The position numbers were made by a program, and so were the translations under genes. From Syntrophorhabdaceae bacterium (GTDB taxonomy: Bacteria; Desulfobacterota; Syntrophorhabdia; Syntrophorhabdales; Syntrophorhabdaceae), in assembly GCA_963666485.2 (NCBI GenBank), contig CAXXUO010000001.1, positions 1,152,001 to 1,216,000 on the forward strand: DNA of 64,000 bases, written 5' to 3'. The notes below the pieces were generated by a model. That model saw nothing but the letters and a program-made list of their open reading frames with translations, was not told the DNA's origin and searched no databases. This document shows, one piece after another, positions 1,370 through 26,611 of the stretch. Position 1 is the stretch's first letter. Every line of letters begins with the position of its first letter.

Positions 1370-2569
1370 ATGGATTACGAGACTCTTATAGGGCTGCGCT
1401 ATTTACGGTCGAAAAGAAAAGAGGCCTTCATCTCCTTTACGACCTGGATATCCGTCGTCGGCATCGCGATCGGCGTCATGGCCATTATTGTCGTCATCGC
1501 GGTCATGACAGGCTTTCAGGATGAGATCAGGGCGCGCATCCTCGGTATAAACCCCCACATCCTGGTCATGGACATGGGTGGGGAGATCCGTAACCCCGGC
1601 GAAATAGTATCGAAGATAAAGCAGATACCCGGCGTCTCCCGGGCATTTCCCTTCACCGCGTTCCAGGCAATGGTGCAGAACGGGAAACAATTGTCCGGTG
1701 TCGCAATAAAAGGCATGAACCCCCAGGATGCGCAGTACCTGGCGAAACTGGTAAAAGAGGGTTCGGTCAACTCGCTCAACCAGAAAGGCAGTGTCCTGAT
1801 CGGGAAAGAGCTTGCGAAGCATCTCGGGCTTTTTCTCGGCGACAGCTTCACGATCATGGTGCCTTTCGGCGGGTTCTCCCCGATGGGCTCCATGCCCGAG
1901 ACCGTGCGGGCACGTGTGGGCGGCATCTTTGAGACGGGCATGTACGAGATCGACAATACCCTCGTCGTCATGCCGCTGCCCGATATCGAGGCCGCAATGG
2001 GCATCGGGGCGACGGGCATAGAGGTCAAGCTCGTCGACGAGTACAAGGCCGGTGACATGAAATGGACGATCCTCAAGGCCCTCGGCCGCGATTATTTTGC
2101 CAAGACATGGATGGAAATGAACCGCAACCTTTTCTCCGCGCTAAAGCTCGAGAAGCTCGCGATGTTCATCATCCTCGCGCTCATCATCCTCGTCGCGAGC
2201 TTCAACATAATCAGCTCGCTCATCATGACGGTCATGGAAAAGAAAAAGGACATCGCCATACTCAAGTCGATCGGGGCAAAGAAGCGGAGCATCATGAAGA
2301 TCTTCATGATGGAAGGGATAACAATAGGCGTGGTCGGCGCTCTTTTCGGGTCGCTCACCGGCTACTTCCTGTGCTGGATAATCAAGAGCACCGGGCTTAT
2401 AAAACTGCCCGAGGACGTCTATTACATAACGACCCTCCCGGCAAAGATCAGTATCATCGACGTCGCTCTGATCGCCCTGGTGACGATGGTCATATGCGTC
2501 CTCGCGACGATATACCCGTCATACAAGGCCGCGAAAATAGACCCCGTGGAGACCCTGCGCTATGAGTGA
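1370..2569 (+). CDS. lolE: Lipoprotein-releasing ABC transporter permease LolC/E
   Basis: IGLRYLRSKRK N-terminus, MacB/FtsX architecture, DIAILKSIGA; coupled to lolD. Confidence 0.9.
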   Translation: MDYETLIGLRYLRSKRKEAFISFTTWISVVGIAIGVMAIIVVIAVMTGFQDEIRARILGINPHILVMDMGGEIRNPGEIVSKIKQIPGVSRAFPFTAFQAMVQNGKQLSGVAIKGMNPQDAQYLAKLVKEGSVNSLNQKGSVLIGKELAKHLGLFLGDSFTIMVPFGGFSPMGSMPETVRARVGGIFETGMYEIDNTLVVMPLPDIEAAMGIGATGIEVKLVDEYKAGDMKWTILKALGRDYFAKTWMEMNRNLFSALKLEKLAMFIILALIILVASFNIISSLIMTVMEKKKDIAILKSIGAKKRSIMKIFMMEGITIGVVGALFGSLTGYFLCWIIKSTGLIKLPEDVYYITTLPAKISIIDVALIALVTMVICVLATIYPSYKAAKIDPVETLRYE

Positions 2570-22071: not shown

Positions 22072-22281
22072 ATGTGGAAAGTGCTGGCCAACTCTGTCGA
22101 GATGCTCATTTATGCAGCGGTCTTCATCATACTTTCCCTTATCGCGGTCAAGATAGTCGGCGCAACATTCACCACGGATTTTGAAAAGAAGATAGCAGAC
22201 GAGAACAACCTGGCGCTTGCCATAATAGTCGCGTCGCTCTTCATCGGCCTCGCCATCATCGTTGCATCAATAGCAGGATAA
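22072..22281 (+). CDS. Small membrane protein (DUF350-like)
   Basis: Two TM helices, ENNLALAI motif, RBS GAGGG. Confidence 0.75.
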   Translation: MWKVLANSVEMLIYAAVFIILSLIAVKIVGATFTTDFEKKIADENNLALAIIVASLFIGLAIIVASIAG

Positions 22282-22985
22282 TGAAAAGCATATTTATCAC
22301 GGGAACCGATACCGGCGTCGGGAAGACTGCCGTTGCATGCTCTCTCGCTGCCTACCTTTCGCTCAAGAAGGGGCGGGATGTCGGGGTGATGAAACCCTTC
22401 GAGAGCGGCGGCGATGCATCGGCCGGGGAGATGGCCGGCGATGCCTGGTCGCTCAAAGCAGCGTCGGGCAGCCAGGATTCGATACGCGATATAAACCCTT
22501 ATAATTTCAAGGCCCCGCTCGCCCCGGAGCCGGCGGCAATGCGGGAAAACGCCGATATCGATGTCGGCCGGGTCATGGCCGCATACAGGAAGCTGTGCGA
22601 CAGGCATGATGTTGTGATCGTTGAAGGCGCCGGCGGAATACTGGTGCCGGTCAGGGACGGCTATTTTTATTCCGACCTGATGGTTGACATGGGCGCGCCG
22701 GTCGTCCTTGTCTCGCGGCTGACGCTCGGCACCATCAACCATACGCTCCTGTCATGCCGTTACCTGAAGTCGATCGGCGTCGAAGTCTCCGGTGTCATAC
22801 TCAACGACATGACCGGGGAGAACGACATAGCGTCAGAGACAAACCCGGAAATGCTCCGGAAATACCTCGAAGTCCCGCTGCTCGGCATATTCCCGCATGA
22901 GCCGGACCTTTTCGCCCAGGCCGTCGGCCGGGAAAAACTCGCGACCCTTTTCGAAAAAAATATCAACTGCGAAATATTTAAATGA
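22281..22985 (+). CDS. bioD: Dethiobiotin synthase
   Basis: FITGTDTGVGKT, KPFESG, VEGAGG, LGTINHTLL. Confidence 0.96.
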   Translation: MKSIFITGTDTGVGKTAVACSLAAYLSLKKGRDVGVMKPFESGGDASAGEMAGDAWSLKAASGSQDSIRDINPYNFKAPLAPEPAAMRENADIDVGRVMAAYRKLCDRHDVVIVEGAGGILVPVRDGYFYSDLMVDMGAPVVLVSRLTLGTINHTLLSCRYLKSIGVEVSGVILNDMTGENDIASETNPEMLRKYLEVPLLGIFPHEPDLFAQAVGREKLATLFEKNINCEIFK

Positions 22986-24238: not shown

Positions 24239-25425
24239 CTCTTTATGATACGTTTTCCTATCCTGATGAACCCTTCGATGCTGTTCTCTATCGTTCTCAT
24301 AGGGACACAGTACGCGATCCTGAAATACCCTTTCTTTCCGAAGCCCCTGCCGGGGACGACCATGATGCGCTCATCCTGCTGCAGGCTGCGAATGAAATCC
24401 AGTTCATCGGCGACGGGTGAGCGGGGGAACATGTAGAAAGCACCCCTGGGTTTCACACATTCAAACCCTCCCTCGACGAGAGCGTTGTAAAGGAGGTCGC
24501 GCTTGCGCTGGTATTCCCCGATATCCACCGATGTCCGCTGGAATTTGGACACGGCGCGCTGGAACAGGGCCGGTGCATTGACAAAGCCAAGCGTCCTCTG
24601 CGTGATCATGAGCCCCGACTGAAGAAGTTCGGCGTCGGGCAGGCGCGGTGATATAGCGAGATACCCTATTCTTTCCCCGGGCAACGCCAGGTCCTTGGAA
24701 TGCGAATTGATCGAACACGTGAGGTCATACGCCTTGAAGATGTTCGGAAGTTTAATGTCGTCAAAAACAAGTTTCCTGTACGCATCGTCCGCAATGAGGT
24801 AAATATCCTGGCCTTCCGACCGTTTCCTGTTAAGGAGCGTCACAAGGTCCGAAATGCTTTCCTCGGAATAAACGGCACCGGTCGGGTTGTTGGGGCTGTT
24901 GATGAGTATGGCGCGTGTCTTGGGGGTGATGGCATTGGCCAGCCGGTCGACATCGAGCTGGAAATCATCCTTTGACCTGACCGTCTTCAGTTTCCCGCCG
25001 TGGTTCTGCACGTAATTGCGGAATTCCCAGAAGAAGGGTGTAGGCACGATCACCTCGTCTCCCCGGTTGAGCATGACCTTCAGCAGAATGTTGAGCCCGC
25101 CGGCGGCCCCGTTCGACATGAAAACGTGTGAGGCGGTAAAGGGGAGCCCGTATATCTCGCTCAAGTAGTCGGCAACGTCCTGGCGCACCTCTTCGTACCC
25201 GCTGTTCGACATGTACCTGTGCATGCCTTTGACAGGATTGGCAAGCGCATCCATCAGCGTTTTCAGTAATATGTCGGGCGGTTCCGTATCGGGGTTGCCG
25301 AGGGAAAAATCATAGACGTTCTCCTCCCCGTACAGTTTCTTGATCTTGAGGCCTTCCTCGAACATCCTGCGGGTCCAGCCTTCCTGGTCTGCTATCAATT
25401 TTTGGATCTGTCGGGATACGATCAT
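24235..25425 (-). CDS. Class I/II PLP-dependent aminotransferase (first of tandem pair)
   Basis: NSPNNPTG, ADDAY, SHSKDLALPGERIG; RBS AAGGAG. Confidence 0.93.
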   Translation of the reverse strand: MIVSRQIQKLIADQEGWTRRMFEEGLKIKKLYGEENVYDFSLGNPDTEPPDILLKTLMDALANPVKGMHRYMSNSGYEEVRQDVADYLSEIYGLPFTASHVFMSNGAAGGLNILLKVMLNRGDEVIVPTPFFWEFRNYVQNHGGKLKTVRSKDDFQLDVDRLANAITPKTRAILINSPNNPTGAVYSEESISDLVTLLNRKRSEGQDIYLIADDAYRKLVFDDIKLPNIFKAYDLTCSINSHSKDLALPGERIGYLAISPRLPDAELLQSGLMITQRTLGFVNAPALFQRAVSKFQRTSVDIGEYQRKRDLLYNALVEGGFECVKPRGAFYMFPRSPVADELDFIRSLQQDERIMVVPGRGFGKKGYFRIAYCVPMRTIENSIEGFIRIGKRIIKR

Positions 25426-25443
25426 TTAAGCTCTCCTTATAAT

Positions 25444-25548
25444 AAAAAAGCCATGGGTGTATGCGGCCCATGGCATAAAAAAAGGGCCATGGGTTCCTTG
25501 CACCCATGGCCCTTTGTGTGTCAGCACAAAGGTAGGCCCGGGTGCAAG
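25444..25548 (-). terminator. Attenuator: antiterminator plus two tandem intrinsic terminators
   Basis: T1 GGGCCATGGGT/ACCCATGGCCC-T7 (25477-25512); T2 GCCATGGG/CCCATGGC-T6 (25444-25474); competing stems 25540-25548/25497-25505 and 25525-25532/25511-25518. Confidence 0.88.
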
Positions 25549-25595
25549 CGCCTAAAGAAGAAAAAGCCAAAAAAGAAAGAGAACATCCTCATCAT
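25521..25595 (-). CDS. Phe-rich leader peptide MMRMFSFFFGFFFFRRLHPGLPLC
   Basis: Translated by hand: 24 aa, 8 Phe in 10 consecutive codons, overlaps the antiterminator. Confidence 0.85.
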   Translation of the reverse strand: MMRMFSFFFGFFFFRRLHPGLPLC

Positions 25596-25601
25596 GCCAA
25601 C

Positions 25602-25630
25602 ATTAAAAAGCAAAGCAAATTTTTTGTCAA
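25602..25630 (-). promoter_or_regulatory. Sigma70 promoter TTGACA-N17-TTTAAT for the leader/aminotransferase operon
   Basis: -35 at 25625-25630, -10 at 25602-25607. Confidence 0.75.
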
Positions 25631-25693
25631 GGGAAACCTGAATTTTGCTGCGGGGAGCACAAAGTCCCTCACAGCGCCATTGCGCCATATACA

Positions 25694-25722
25694 TTGACAT
25701 GACGGGGTTTTACACTTATAAT
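25694..25722 (+). promoter_or_regulatory. Sigma70 promoter TTGACA-N17-TATAAT
   Basis: Perfect consensus upstream of the MoxR gene. Confidence 0.85.
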
Positions 25723-25759
25723 ATAGCGGATTTTTTGACTTTTGCAAGGAGGCATTACT

Positions 25760-26611
25760 ATGTCAGGCACAAATCATGGATATCACGGCAGCGAGGATTA
25801 CATCGCATCGAAAGCACTTATGGAGATCGTCAATGTGGCCGTGGTACTTCAGAAGCCGCTTGTTGTAAAAGGGGAGCCGGGGACGGGGAAGACGCTTCTC
25901 GCCCACAGCATCGCCCGTGCGCTCAACAAGAGGCTTCTCATATGGAATATCAAGTCTACAACGAAGGCAAAAGACGGCCTGTACGTATACGATACCGTGC
26001 AGCGGCTCAACGACGCCCGTTTCAAGGACAAGGACATCAGTGATATACGGCAGTACATAAAGATGGGGAAGCTCGGCCAGGCGTTTCAGACCGATGAGCA
26101 GGTGATCCTCCTGATCGACGAGATCGACAAGGCGGATATCGAGTTCCCCAATGACCTGCTCAACGAACTCGATGAGATGACATTTCATATCAACGAGCTC
26201 GATGAAACGGTGTCGGCCATACATAGGCCGATCGTGATCATAACGAGCAATTCCGAAAAGGAATTGCCCGACGCGTTCCTGAGACGGTGCCTTTTCTATT
26301 ACATTGAATTTCCCGACGGGGAAATGATGGAGCGGATCATCAAGGTGCATTACCCGGACATAGAGGACAAGCTTGTCCGAGAAGCGCTGAAGAAATTCTA
26401 CTGGCTCAGGGAAATGGACGGACTGAAGAAGAGGCCGTCGACAAGCGAGCTGCTCGACTGGATAAAGGCACTCGCCCTGGGCGGCGTGAAGATCGATAAG
26501 ATCAACAACGAGATCCCGTTCCTCGGGACCCTTTTGAAAAACGAACAGGATACCGACAGGTTTGTGCGGGTGTCATCCAACCAGGGCGGGTTCGGTTTCA
26601 AGCGAAGGTAA
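25760..26611 (+). CDS. MoxR-family AAA+ ATPase
   Basis: GEPGTGKT, LLIDEIDKAD, ITSNSEKELPDAFLRRC; RBS AGGAGG. Confidence 0.93.
   Translation: MSGTNHGYHGSEDYIASKALMEIVNVAVVLQKPLVVKGEPGTGKTLLAHSIARALNKRLLIWNIKSTTKAKDGLYVYDTVQRLNDARFKDKDISDIRQYIKMGKLGQAFQTDEQVILLIDEIDKADIEFPNDLLNELDEMTFHINELDETVSAIHRPIVIITSNSEKELPDAFLRRCLFYYIEFPDGEMMERIIKVHYPDIEDKLVREALKKFYWLREMDGLKKRPSTSELLDWIKALALGGVKIDKINNEIPFLGTLLKNEQDTDRFVRVSSNQGGFGFKRR

Follow-up and report, generated by a model that had tools for sequence, protein, structure and literature searches.

A probable phenylalanine-responsive leader-peptide attenuator with two putatively coupled terminators upstream of an aminotransferase operon in Syntrophorhabdus

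A short phenylalanine-rich open reading frame, followed by two terminators in series, lies upstream of two aminotransferase genes on the minus strand of a Syntrophorhabdus genome. The arrangement is interpreted, with good confidence, as a leader-peptide attenuator of the two-gene operon, in which a relay of pairing strands would pass one ribosome stall to both terminators. The interpretation was drawn from the sequence of a 64,000-nucleotide stretch of DNA (the window) and from related loci, and followed up a sequence-only reading of the same region. Feature positions refer to the window and are collected in Table 1.

Table 1. Positions of the leader elements and neighbouring genes within the window
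Feature	Positions	Strand	Details
-35 box	25630-25625	minus	TTGACA; from sequence reading
-10 box	25607-25602	minus	TTTAAT; 5/6 consensus matches, without the -11 A; spacer 17 nt
Leader ORF	25595-25521	minus	MMRMFSFFFGFFFFRRLHPGLPLC followed by stop, 24 codons; stop TGA 25523-25521
Segment A (antiterminator 5' strand)	25548-25536	minus	CTTGCACCC, G, GGC; inside leader ORF
Hairpin B	25532-25511	minus	CCTTTGTG (25532-25525) with CACAAAGG (25518-25511)
Terminator T1	25512-25477	minus	arm C GGGCCATGGGT 25512-25502; loop 25501-25495; arm D ACCCATGGCCC 25494-25484; U7 25483-25477
Terminator T2	25474-25444	minus	arm E GCCATGGG 25474-25467; loop 25466-25458; arm F CCCATGGC 25457-25450; U6 25449-25444
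Shine-Dalgarno sequence (SD)	25437-25433	minus	AGGAG; before aminotransferase gene 1
Aminotransferase gene 1	25425-24235	minus	396 aa; NF005305 2.7e-157; Pfam Aminotran_1_2 3.2e-56
Aminotransferase gene 2	24238-23048	minus	396 aa; NF005305, Aminotran_1_2; 4-nt overlap with gene 1
AAA-ATPase gene	25742-26611	plus	AAA_5/AAA, weak MadB-like match; divergent from leader

Results

The leader peptide and its conservation

The Phe-rich minus-strand frame claimed in the sequence-only reading was recovered at the same coordinates on rereading, with its 8 Phe in 10 codons located between 25583 and 25554. A genome-wide scan for frames with at least 7 F/Y in 10 codons returned 38 frames and was uninformative alone. 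Orthologous upstream regions were taken from loci found with the aminotransferase; 75 loci had the T1 motif and enough flank, and these gave 57 distinct sequences. In 55 of the 57, an open reading frame of no more than 45 codons with at least 5 F/Y/W in 10 codons ended before T1, its stop codon being located 10-28 nt before arm C. The exceptions were L021, with TGG instead of a stop, and L053. The L021 frame continues through both terminators, L053 has kept T1 with T2 absent, and at another locus, L177, a Tyr run is out of frame with its ATG. These three variants may be assembly errors or genuine loss of control.

Phe and Tyr codons are mixed in most orthologues, for example FFYFFFFRSLHPG and FYFYFRNLHP, which suggests that the ancestral signal was Phe plus Tyr. 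The leader of the cultured S. aromaticivorans UI (L065) reads MNQQTDFSSFDFFYFRNLHPCSFLL. Conserved Phe runs upstream of orthologues had been proposed as a check: an aromatic in-frame run was kept in the same 55 leaders, and the Phe-only run was shared by the genome studied and its nearest relatives. At the peptide level a C-terminal RSLHPG motif was kept, and the N-terminus and length varied freely. The RNA segment GCACCCGGG and the LHPG codons occupy the same nucleotides, which places this conservation at the RNA level.

Promoter and transcript start

The promoter TTGACA-N17-TTTAAT, closely followed by an ATG lacking an SD, was present on the minus strand as had been claimed. A promoter scan of the locus did not list it, because the -10 hexamer has no A at its second position. 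Only 6 nt (GTTGGC) separate the -10 box from the leader ATG at 25595, which leaves no space for an SD. CTTGACA was invariant or almost so in alignment A1. Measured from the T of TTGAC, 53 of the 57 distinct orthologous leaders have an in-frame ATG at a distance of 35-40 nt (35 nt, n = 18; 36 nt, n = 13; 37 nt, n = 9; 38 nt, n = 12; 40 nt, n = 1). Given a spacer of 17 nt and a -10 box of 6 nt, the A of the ATG would then fall at +1 to about +4. Other, more distant families carry TAGATT, TACAAT, TAGACT or TATATT at the same -10 position, and these canonical hexamers support the promoter assignment despite the weak TTTAAT.

In the four remaining leaders (L029, L076, L077 and L090) the distance between TTGAC and the ATG is 46-57 nt. 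An SD-like purine tract is present in three of the four, which points to a leadered version in another lineage. For the Phe leader itself, the conserved ATG spacing speaks for the leaderless start that had been suggested, as far as sequence can do so, and a leaderless or near-leaderless start is considered probable.

On the opposite strand, a perfect TTGACA-17-TATAAT promoter (12/12) was observed at 25694-25722, facing the AAA-ATPase gene. The leader promoter and the AAA-ATPase promoter point away from each other and lie within about 100 nt.

The regulated genes

Both aminotransferases are of class I, with 54% mutual identity. The nearest solved relatives of the gene 1 product included 3ELE, an unnamed aminotransferase, and the aromatic aminotransferase 1DJU (6.4e-44); NF005305 itself is a generic class I family. 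Since the proteins match the generic family only, it is from the leader that we infer a role in Phe (and Tyr) synthesis. An ORF of 210 aa with no Pfam or NCBIfam match lies on the minus strand at 22110-22742, 305 nt past aminotransferase gene 2, and a weak terminator-like hairpin (22860-22844) is located between the two.

Terminators and antiterminator

Both terminators are built on GCCAUGG arms, and T1 was picked up by a terminator scan. T1 had a folding energy of -26.9 kcal/mol (z -5.97, 0/200 shuffles as good) and T2 of -14.5 kcal/mol (z -3.07, 2/200 shuffles as good); the complete leader folded at -64.6 kcal/mol (z -4.54, 0/200 shuffles as good). Over 56 sequences, 98.0% of cells were paired in T1, with covariation of the outer pair (AU 27, GC 22), and 100% in T2, with compensatory changes at three pairs. 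T2 with its U-run was kept in 55 of the 57 distinct leaders.

The antiterminator is formed by pairing of CUUGCACCC with GGGUGCAAG, enclosing a small hairpin. Pairing of the 3' half of the leader with the 5' arm of T1 had been proposed, and is borne out by the complementarity of CTTGCACCC (25548-25540) to GGGTGCAAG (25505-25497), the latter comprising the end of T1 arm C and part of the T1 loop. This fold had an energy of -31.9 kcal/mol (z -6.33, 0/200 shuffles as good). The A:C core GCACCC:GGGUGC was paired in 56 of 56 sequences (alignment A2), and the lower A:C pairs showed compensatory switches of G-C to A-U or U-A, together with C-G/G-C alternatives. Compensatory antiterminator changes were found in L026, L076, L077 and L090. 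As A:C and the 5' arm of T1 share GGGUG, the two structures are mutually exclusive.

Hairpin B carries the leader stop codon in its loop and stacks inside the antiterminator; both-side changes were found in four of the five pairs tested, and it is possibly a pause hairpin. The exact motif GCCATGGGTGCA has three copies in the genome, and the two others were rejected as chance matches inside coding sequence.

Pairing values for the antiterminator, T1 and T2 were all above slid and shuffled controls, which overstate significance in alignments made of related sequences. Segment A lies within the ORF, so placed that a ribosome at the stop codon would mask it and a ribosome stalled at the regulatory codons would free it. 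From these features the region is very probably a ribosome-mediated leader-peptide transcription attenuator.

Pairing between the two terminators

The 3' arm of T1 (D) is the exact complement of the 5' arm of T2 (E). As a hairpin alone D:E is weak (-10.8 kcal/mol, z -1.81, 11/200 shuffles as good). Over 56 sequences, lineages with a diverged T2 included, D:E was paired in 99.2% of cells. Substitutions in arm E were A>G or C>U only and still wobble-pair with D, with switches of U-A to U-G in 11 sequences and of G-C to G-U in 3; pairs that would require U>C or G>A in E remain at the wobble stage. In nine lineages with a diverged T2 (L019, L030, L059, L064, L068, L073, L081, L094 and L097; for example GGGGCUGUGG...CCGCAGCCCC in L059, L064 and L068) the D:E duplex had an energy of -11.9 to -20.1 kcal/mol, against -5.6 to -11.1 kcal/mol for C:F. 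Mismatched cells numbered 12 for C:F versus 3 for D:E. A nested C:F/D:E fold was considered as the conserved structure and rejected, since C:F decays where T2 diverges.

Covariation across operons was assessed in 69 loci of several operons and lineages, using the best row per locus (alignment A3); as these loci are related, the counts that follow are not independent. The central pair of T1 and T2 covaried: D=C occurred with E=G in 20 of 22 loci, and the 47 loci with D=U had E=A in 35, G in 11 and C in 1. L116 carries CCACGG/CCGUGG in both terminators with a matching antiterminator change, and all four arms of L125 carry CCGCGG. When the E arms were permuted among loci, 0 of 5000 permutations reached the observed D:E pairing. 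C:F likewise beat all permutations, because identical T1 and T2 cores permit both pairings, and discriminating loci were few (9 for D:E, 2 for C:F). The change of both cores together across operons fits the proposed relay. The exact complementarity, the paired cells and the core covariation thus lend support to the claimed coupling of the T1 3' arm to the T2 5' arm, and a functional D:E relay linking both terminators is moderately favoured.

Folding energetics and proposed mechanism

Energies were calculated for growing transcripts and, with the first 40 nt masked as a stalled ribosome, for alternative states. These calculations replaced equilibrium folding with ribosome masks, which favoured an extended T1 borrowing the U-run and was judged misleading. 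The antiterminator was the minimum free energy (MFE) structure of growing transcripts at 96-108 nt. T1 was marginally better at 112-124 nt, solely by using the U-run, and antiterminator plus D:E was the MFE structure at 128-144 nt. Once F was made the nested C:F/D:E fold won.

In the masked leader through D, the antiterminator had an energy of -32.5 kcal/mol versus -27.5 kcal/mol for T1, with a findpath barrier of about 20.6 kcal/mol. Through F, the values were -46.4 kcal/mol for antiterminator plus D:E, -45.8 kcal/mol for antiterminator plus T2 (barrier between these two about 10.5 kcal/mol), -41.6 kcal/mol for T1 plus T2 and -43.7 kcal/mol for the nested fold. In the free full-length leader at equilibrium the MFE structure pairs C:F and D:E and is not the relay; a hairpin still precedes the T2 U-run. 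Folding of the alternatives had been suggested as a check, and it upheld the first step, with the antiterminator beating T1 under the mask; for the second step, D:E and T2 were iso-energetic, and the relay was not the equilibrium fold. In these models the first switch (antiterminator versus T1) is thermodynamically and kinetically sound. For the relay, the equal energies and the barrier of about 10.5 kcal/mol mean that it would operate by kinetics only.

From the observed elements and their complementarity, conservation and covariation, we infer a transcription start, a ribosome stall and an order of folding as follows. Transcription would start no more than about 3 nt from the leader ATG, and the leader would probably be translated as a leaderless mRNA. 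With plentiful Phe-tRNA, the ribosome would reach the stop codon and cover segment A and hairpin B; with A covered, C would pair with D, T1 would form and transcription would end. A polymerase escaping T1 would encounter T2 (E:F). When Phe-tRNA is scarce, the ribosome would stall in the eight-Phe run and A would stay free. The A:C duplex, stacked on hairpin B, would then be in place before D is transcribed, so that T1 could not form. The freed D would pair with E once E emerges; F would then be left without a partner, T2 would fail too and the aminotransferase genes would be transcribed. Segment A would be partly covered if the ribosome stalled as late as the last one or two Phe codons. As no 1:2-type protector hairpin is obvious in the Phe leader, read-through would be the default state of untranslated leaders.

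Alternative explanations

The leader could be an ordinary single switch in which T1 alone is regulated, T2 being a weak independent back-up or insulating terminator that owes its likeness to T1 to duplication. Such a history could give the shared T1 and T2 cores, which equally permit C:F, and the iso-energetic D:E and T2, the z of -1.81 for D:E alone and the L053 relative, which works without T2, agree with it. However, if T2 were an effective terminator outside regulation, its place 10 nt ahead of the SD would make it stop induced transcripts, and nearly all orthologous leaders (the 55 noted above) nevertheless retain T2; E stays pairable with D while F drifts from C, and the T1 and T2 cores change together across operons and lineages. 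The single switch is considered unlikely on this evidence.

Far less probable is recognition of the nearly invariant GCCAUGGGUGCA hairpin by a trans-acting factor, which could be an RNA-binding protein or, in the manner of a T-box, an uncharged tRNA; the U-rich tract would then remain untranslated. No variation in GCCAUGGGUG was seen among 56 sequences, more constancy than a simple stem would usually show; this invariance can be attributed to one strand having two or three partners. In 24900-26200 no Rfam leader family and no T-box was matched at E<=10. The distance from promoter to start codon is fixed, the aromatic run always shares the frame of that start codon, and its ORF closes ahead of T1. 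The same layout carries other codon types (Tyr, Trp, Leu, Ile) in other operons, and the stem cores vary with compensation across loci. A functional hydrophobic micropeptide, with the hairpins merely its terminators, would account for the conservation of the ORF and of RSLHPG at the peptide level, but not for a freely varying N-terminus and length, for the interchange of Phe and Tyr, or for LHPG codons that coincide with GCACCCGGG, which pairs with T1. Termination directly before an SD and gene start makes sense for regulation only, and the micropeptide is regarded as the least probable of the explanations. The attenuator with the D:E relay is preferred to all three.

Occurrence of the layout in other operons and genomes

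The exact motif was present in 47 of 80 aminotransferase loci and a variant in 2, and 31 had none. These 31 loci are the Bacillota homologues of the aminotransferase, and they showed neither leader nor motif; one of them, L098, had just 34 nt upstream, too short for a judgement. A covariance model built on the Phe/Tyr leader element, R1, matched 95 of 96 genomes of the order Syntrophorhabdales at E<=1e-6, the single genome without a match being 90% complete. At E<=1e-3 it also matched 56 genomes among 151 sampled from the phylum. An Rfam scan of 24900-26200 at E<=10 gave no leader family, no T-box and no RF01859 match; matches of the hairpins to miRNA and sRNA families at this threshold were dismissed as chance. 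Among sequencing runs listed for the stretch, three entries of one study carry it as contigs, and none is an RNA run.

Two further candidate attenuators were observed in the same genome. The first, found by R1 (G000:C6:64146-64276, minus strand, locus L163), has TTGACA-N17-TAGACT and the leader MLRNDTSIRLTSYYYYYYSPGHSCRSFS followed by a stop, with six consecutive Tyr (YYYYYY) and then two GCCAUGG-type terminators. It precedes a gene for a 418-aa class I/II aminotransferase and an MFS transporter, and the Tyr leader is kept within the genus (L165-L172, L179). The second, found by motif scan (G000:C7, about 1690-1870, plus strand, locus L164), has the leader MMNVQINNWWWWRKY followed by a stop, with WWWW, TACAAT 6 nt before the ATG and two GCCAUGG-type terminators. 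It precedes genes for a TrpB-like PALP enzyme, an aminotransferase and POR/IOR-like oxidoreductase subunits. The promoters of L163 and L164 are located 6-9 nt from the ATG.

Forty R1 matches outside the order were fetched, and their genes were named from N-terminal translations, not family searches. Loci L116-L162, from other Desulfobacterota, have the same leader-antiterminator-T1-T2 layout with GCCNNGGG stems. Outside the order, Leu-rich leaders precede leuA-like genes, Ile-rich leaders acyl-CoA-dehydrogenase-like genes, Trp-rich leaders trpE- or trpB-like genes, a Val/Ile/Leu-rich leader an ilvB-like gene, and mixed F/Y/W leaders DAHP-synthase-like or aldolase-like genes. The Ile-rich leader (...IRI..IIIRGYIRPCA, then stop) is kept before the acyl-CoA-dehydrogenase-like gene in L124, L131 and L139, an unexpected target for an isoleucine attenuator. 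That loci L116-L162 share a layout with differing codons suggests that one layout was copied to many operons, and its occurrence across the phylum means that the design is not unique to the Phe locus. It is tentatively proposed, as a possibility that falls short of being likely, that Desulfobacterota carry one modular layout copied to many operons and re-aimed by its regulatory codons (Phe, Tyr, Trp, Leu, Ile or mixed aromatic). In each copy one stall would disable two serial terminators by a strand-exchange relay, and in Syntrophorhabdales the leaderless start would obligatorily couple ribosome loading to the nascent 5' end.

Discussion

The mechanism proposed for the Phe leader follows the classical model of pheL, trpL and hisL. 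To our knowledge, nearly all described cases of leader-peptide attenuation come from Proteobacteria and a few Gram-positives and have a single terminator. In the present case an equivalent logic would operate in an anaerobic phylum rich in uncultured members, with two terminators controlled from one sensing event, a design that would give a very low basal level with inducibility retained. The putative Phe, Tyr and Trp sensors of one genome, with Leu and Ile versions elsewhere, would form a natural set of matched switches in which attenuator re-targeting and the tuning of co-transcriptional strand exchange could be studied. Leaders of this kind may also serve to annotate function, marking generic aminotransferases of syntrophic aromatic-compound degraders as Phe- or Tyr-linked.

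In the his leader of Salmonella and E. coli, a chain of hairpins A:B, C:D and E:F alternates with B:C and D:E, and only the last hairpin is a terminator. The Phe leader resembles it in that a relay of mutually exclusive hairpins would pass one ribosome position to a distal terminator. It differs in that C:D, although intermediate, has all the parts of a terminator, U7 run included, which would bring two termination points under control.

Likeness to pheL-pheA and pheM-pheST of E. coli (Rfam Phe_leader RF01859) lies in a short ORF of Phe codons, an antiterminator competing with an intrinsic terminator and a Phe-related gene under control (see also PMC3082878). The Phe leader described here has no sequence or structure match to RF01859. 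Its start is predicted to be leaderless rather than led by an SD, it has two terminators in series, it precedes aminotransferase genes and it belongs to another phylum.

Leaderless leader-peptide attenuators have been described for mycobacterial polycysteine uORFs (bioRxiv 10.1101/834739), in Corynebacterium (PMC3890552) and in Deinococcus deserti (PMC4007540). As described in the abstracts of these papers, they share with the Phe leader a regulatory short ORF at the 5' end of the transcript without an SD. They differ from it in phylum and amino acid, and the same abstracts report no double-terminator relay. A second terminator in tandem within a 5' leader, with a potential antiterminator, is given for the rimP-leader in a passage of PMC2965389. 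Unlike the Phe leader, the rimP-leader belongs to Gammaproteobacteria and is not a leader-peptide device, and strand-exchange coupling is not described in that passage.

In the open full-text literature searched, no Syntrophorhabdus attenuator, no two-terminator relay in a leader-peptide attenuator and no pairing of tandem terminators with a leader peptide were found. Judged by its sequence and that of its relatives, what is likely to be new in the Phe leader, as compared with these known systems, is a probably leaderless and strongly conserved form of a known mechanism, with two terminators putatively coupled by strand exchange, within a family that can be re-targeted.
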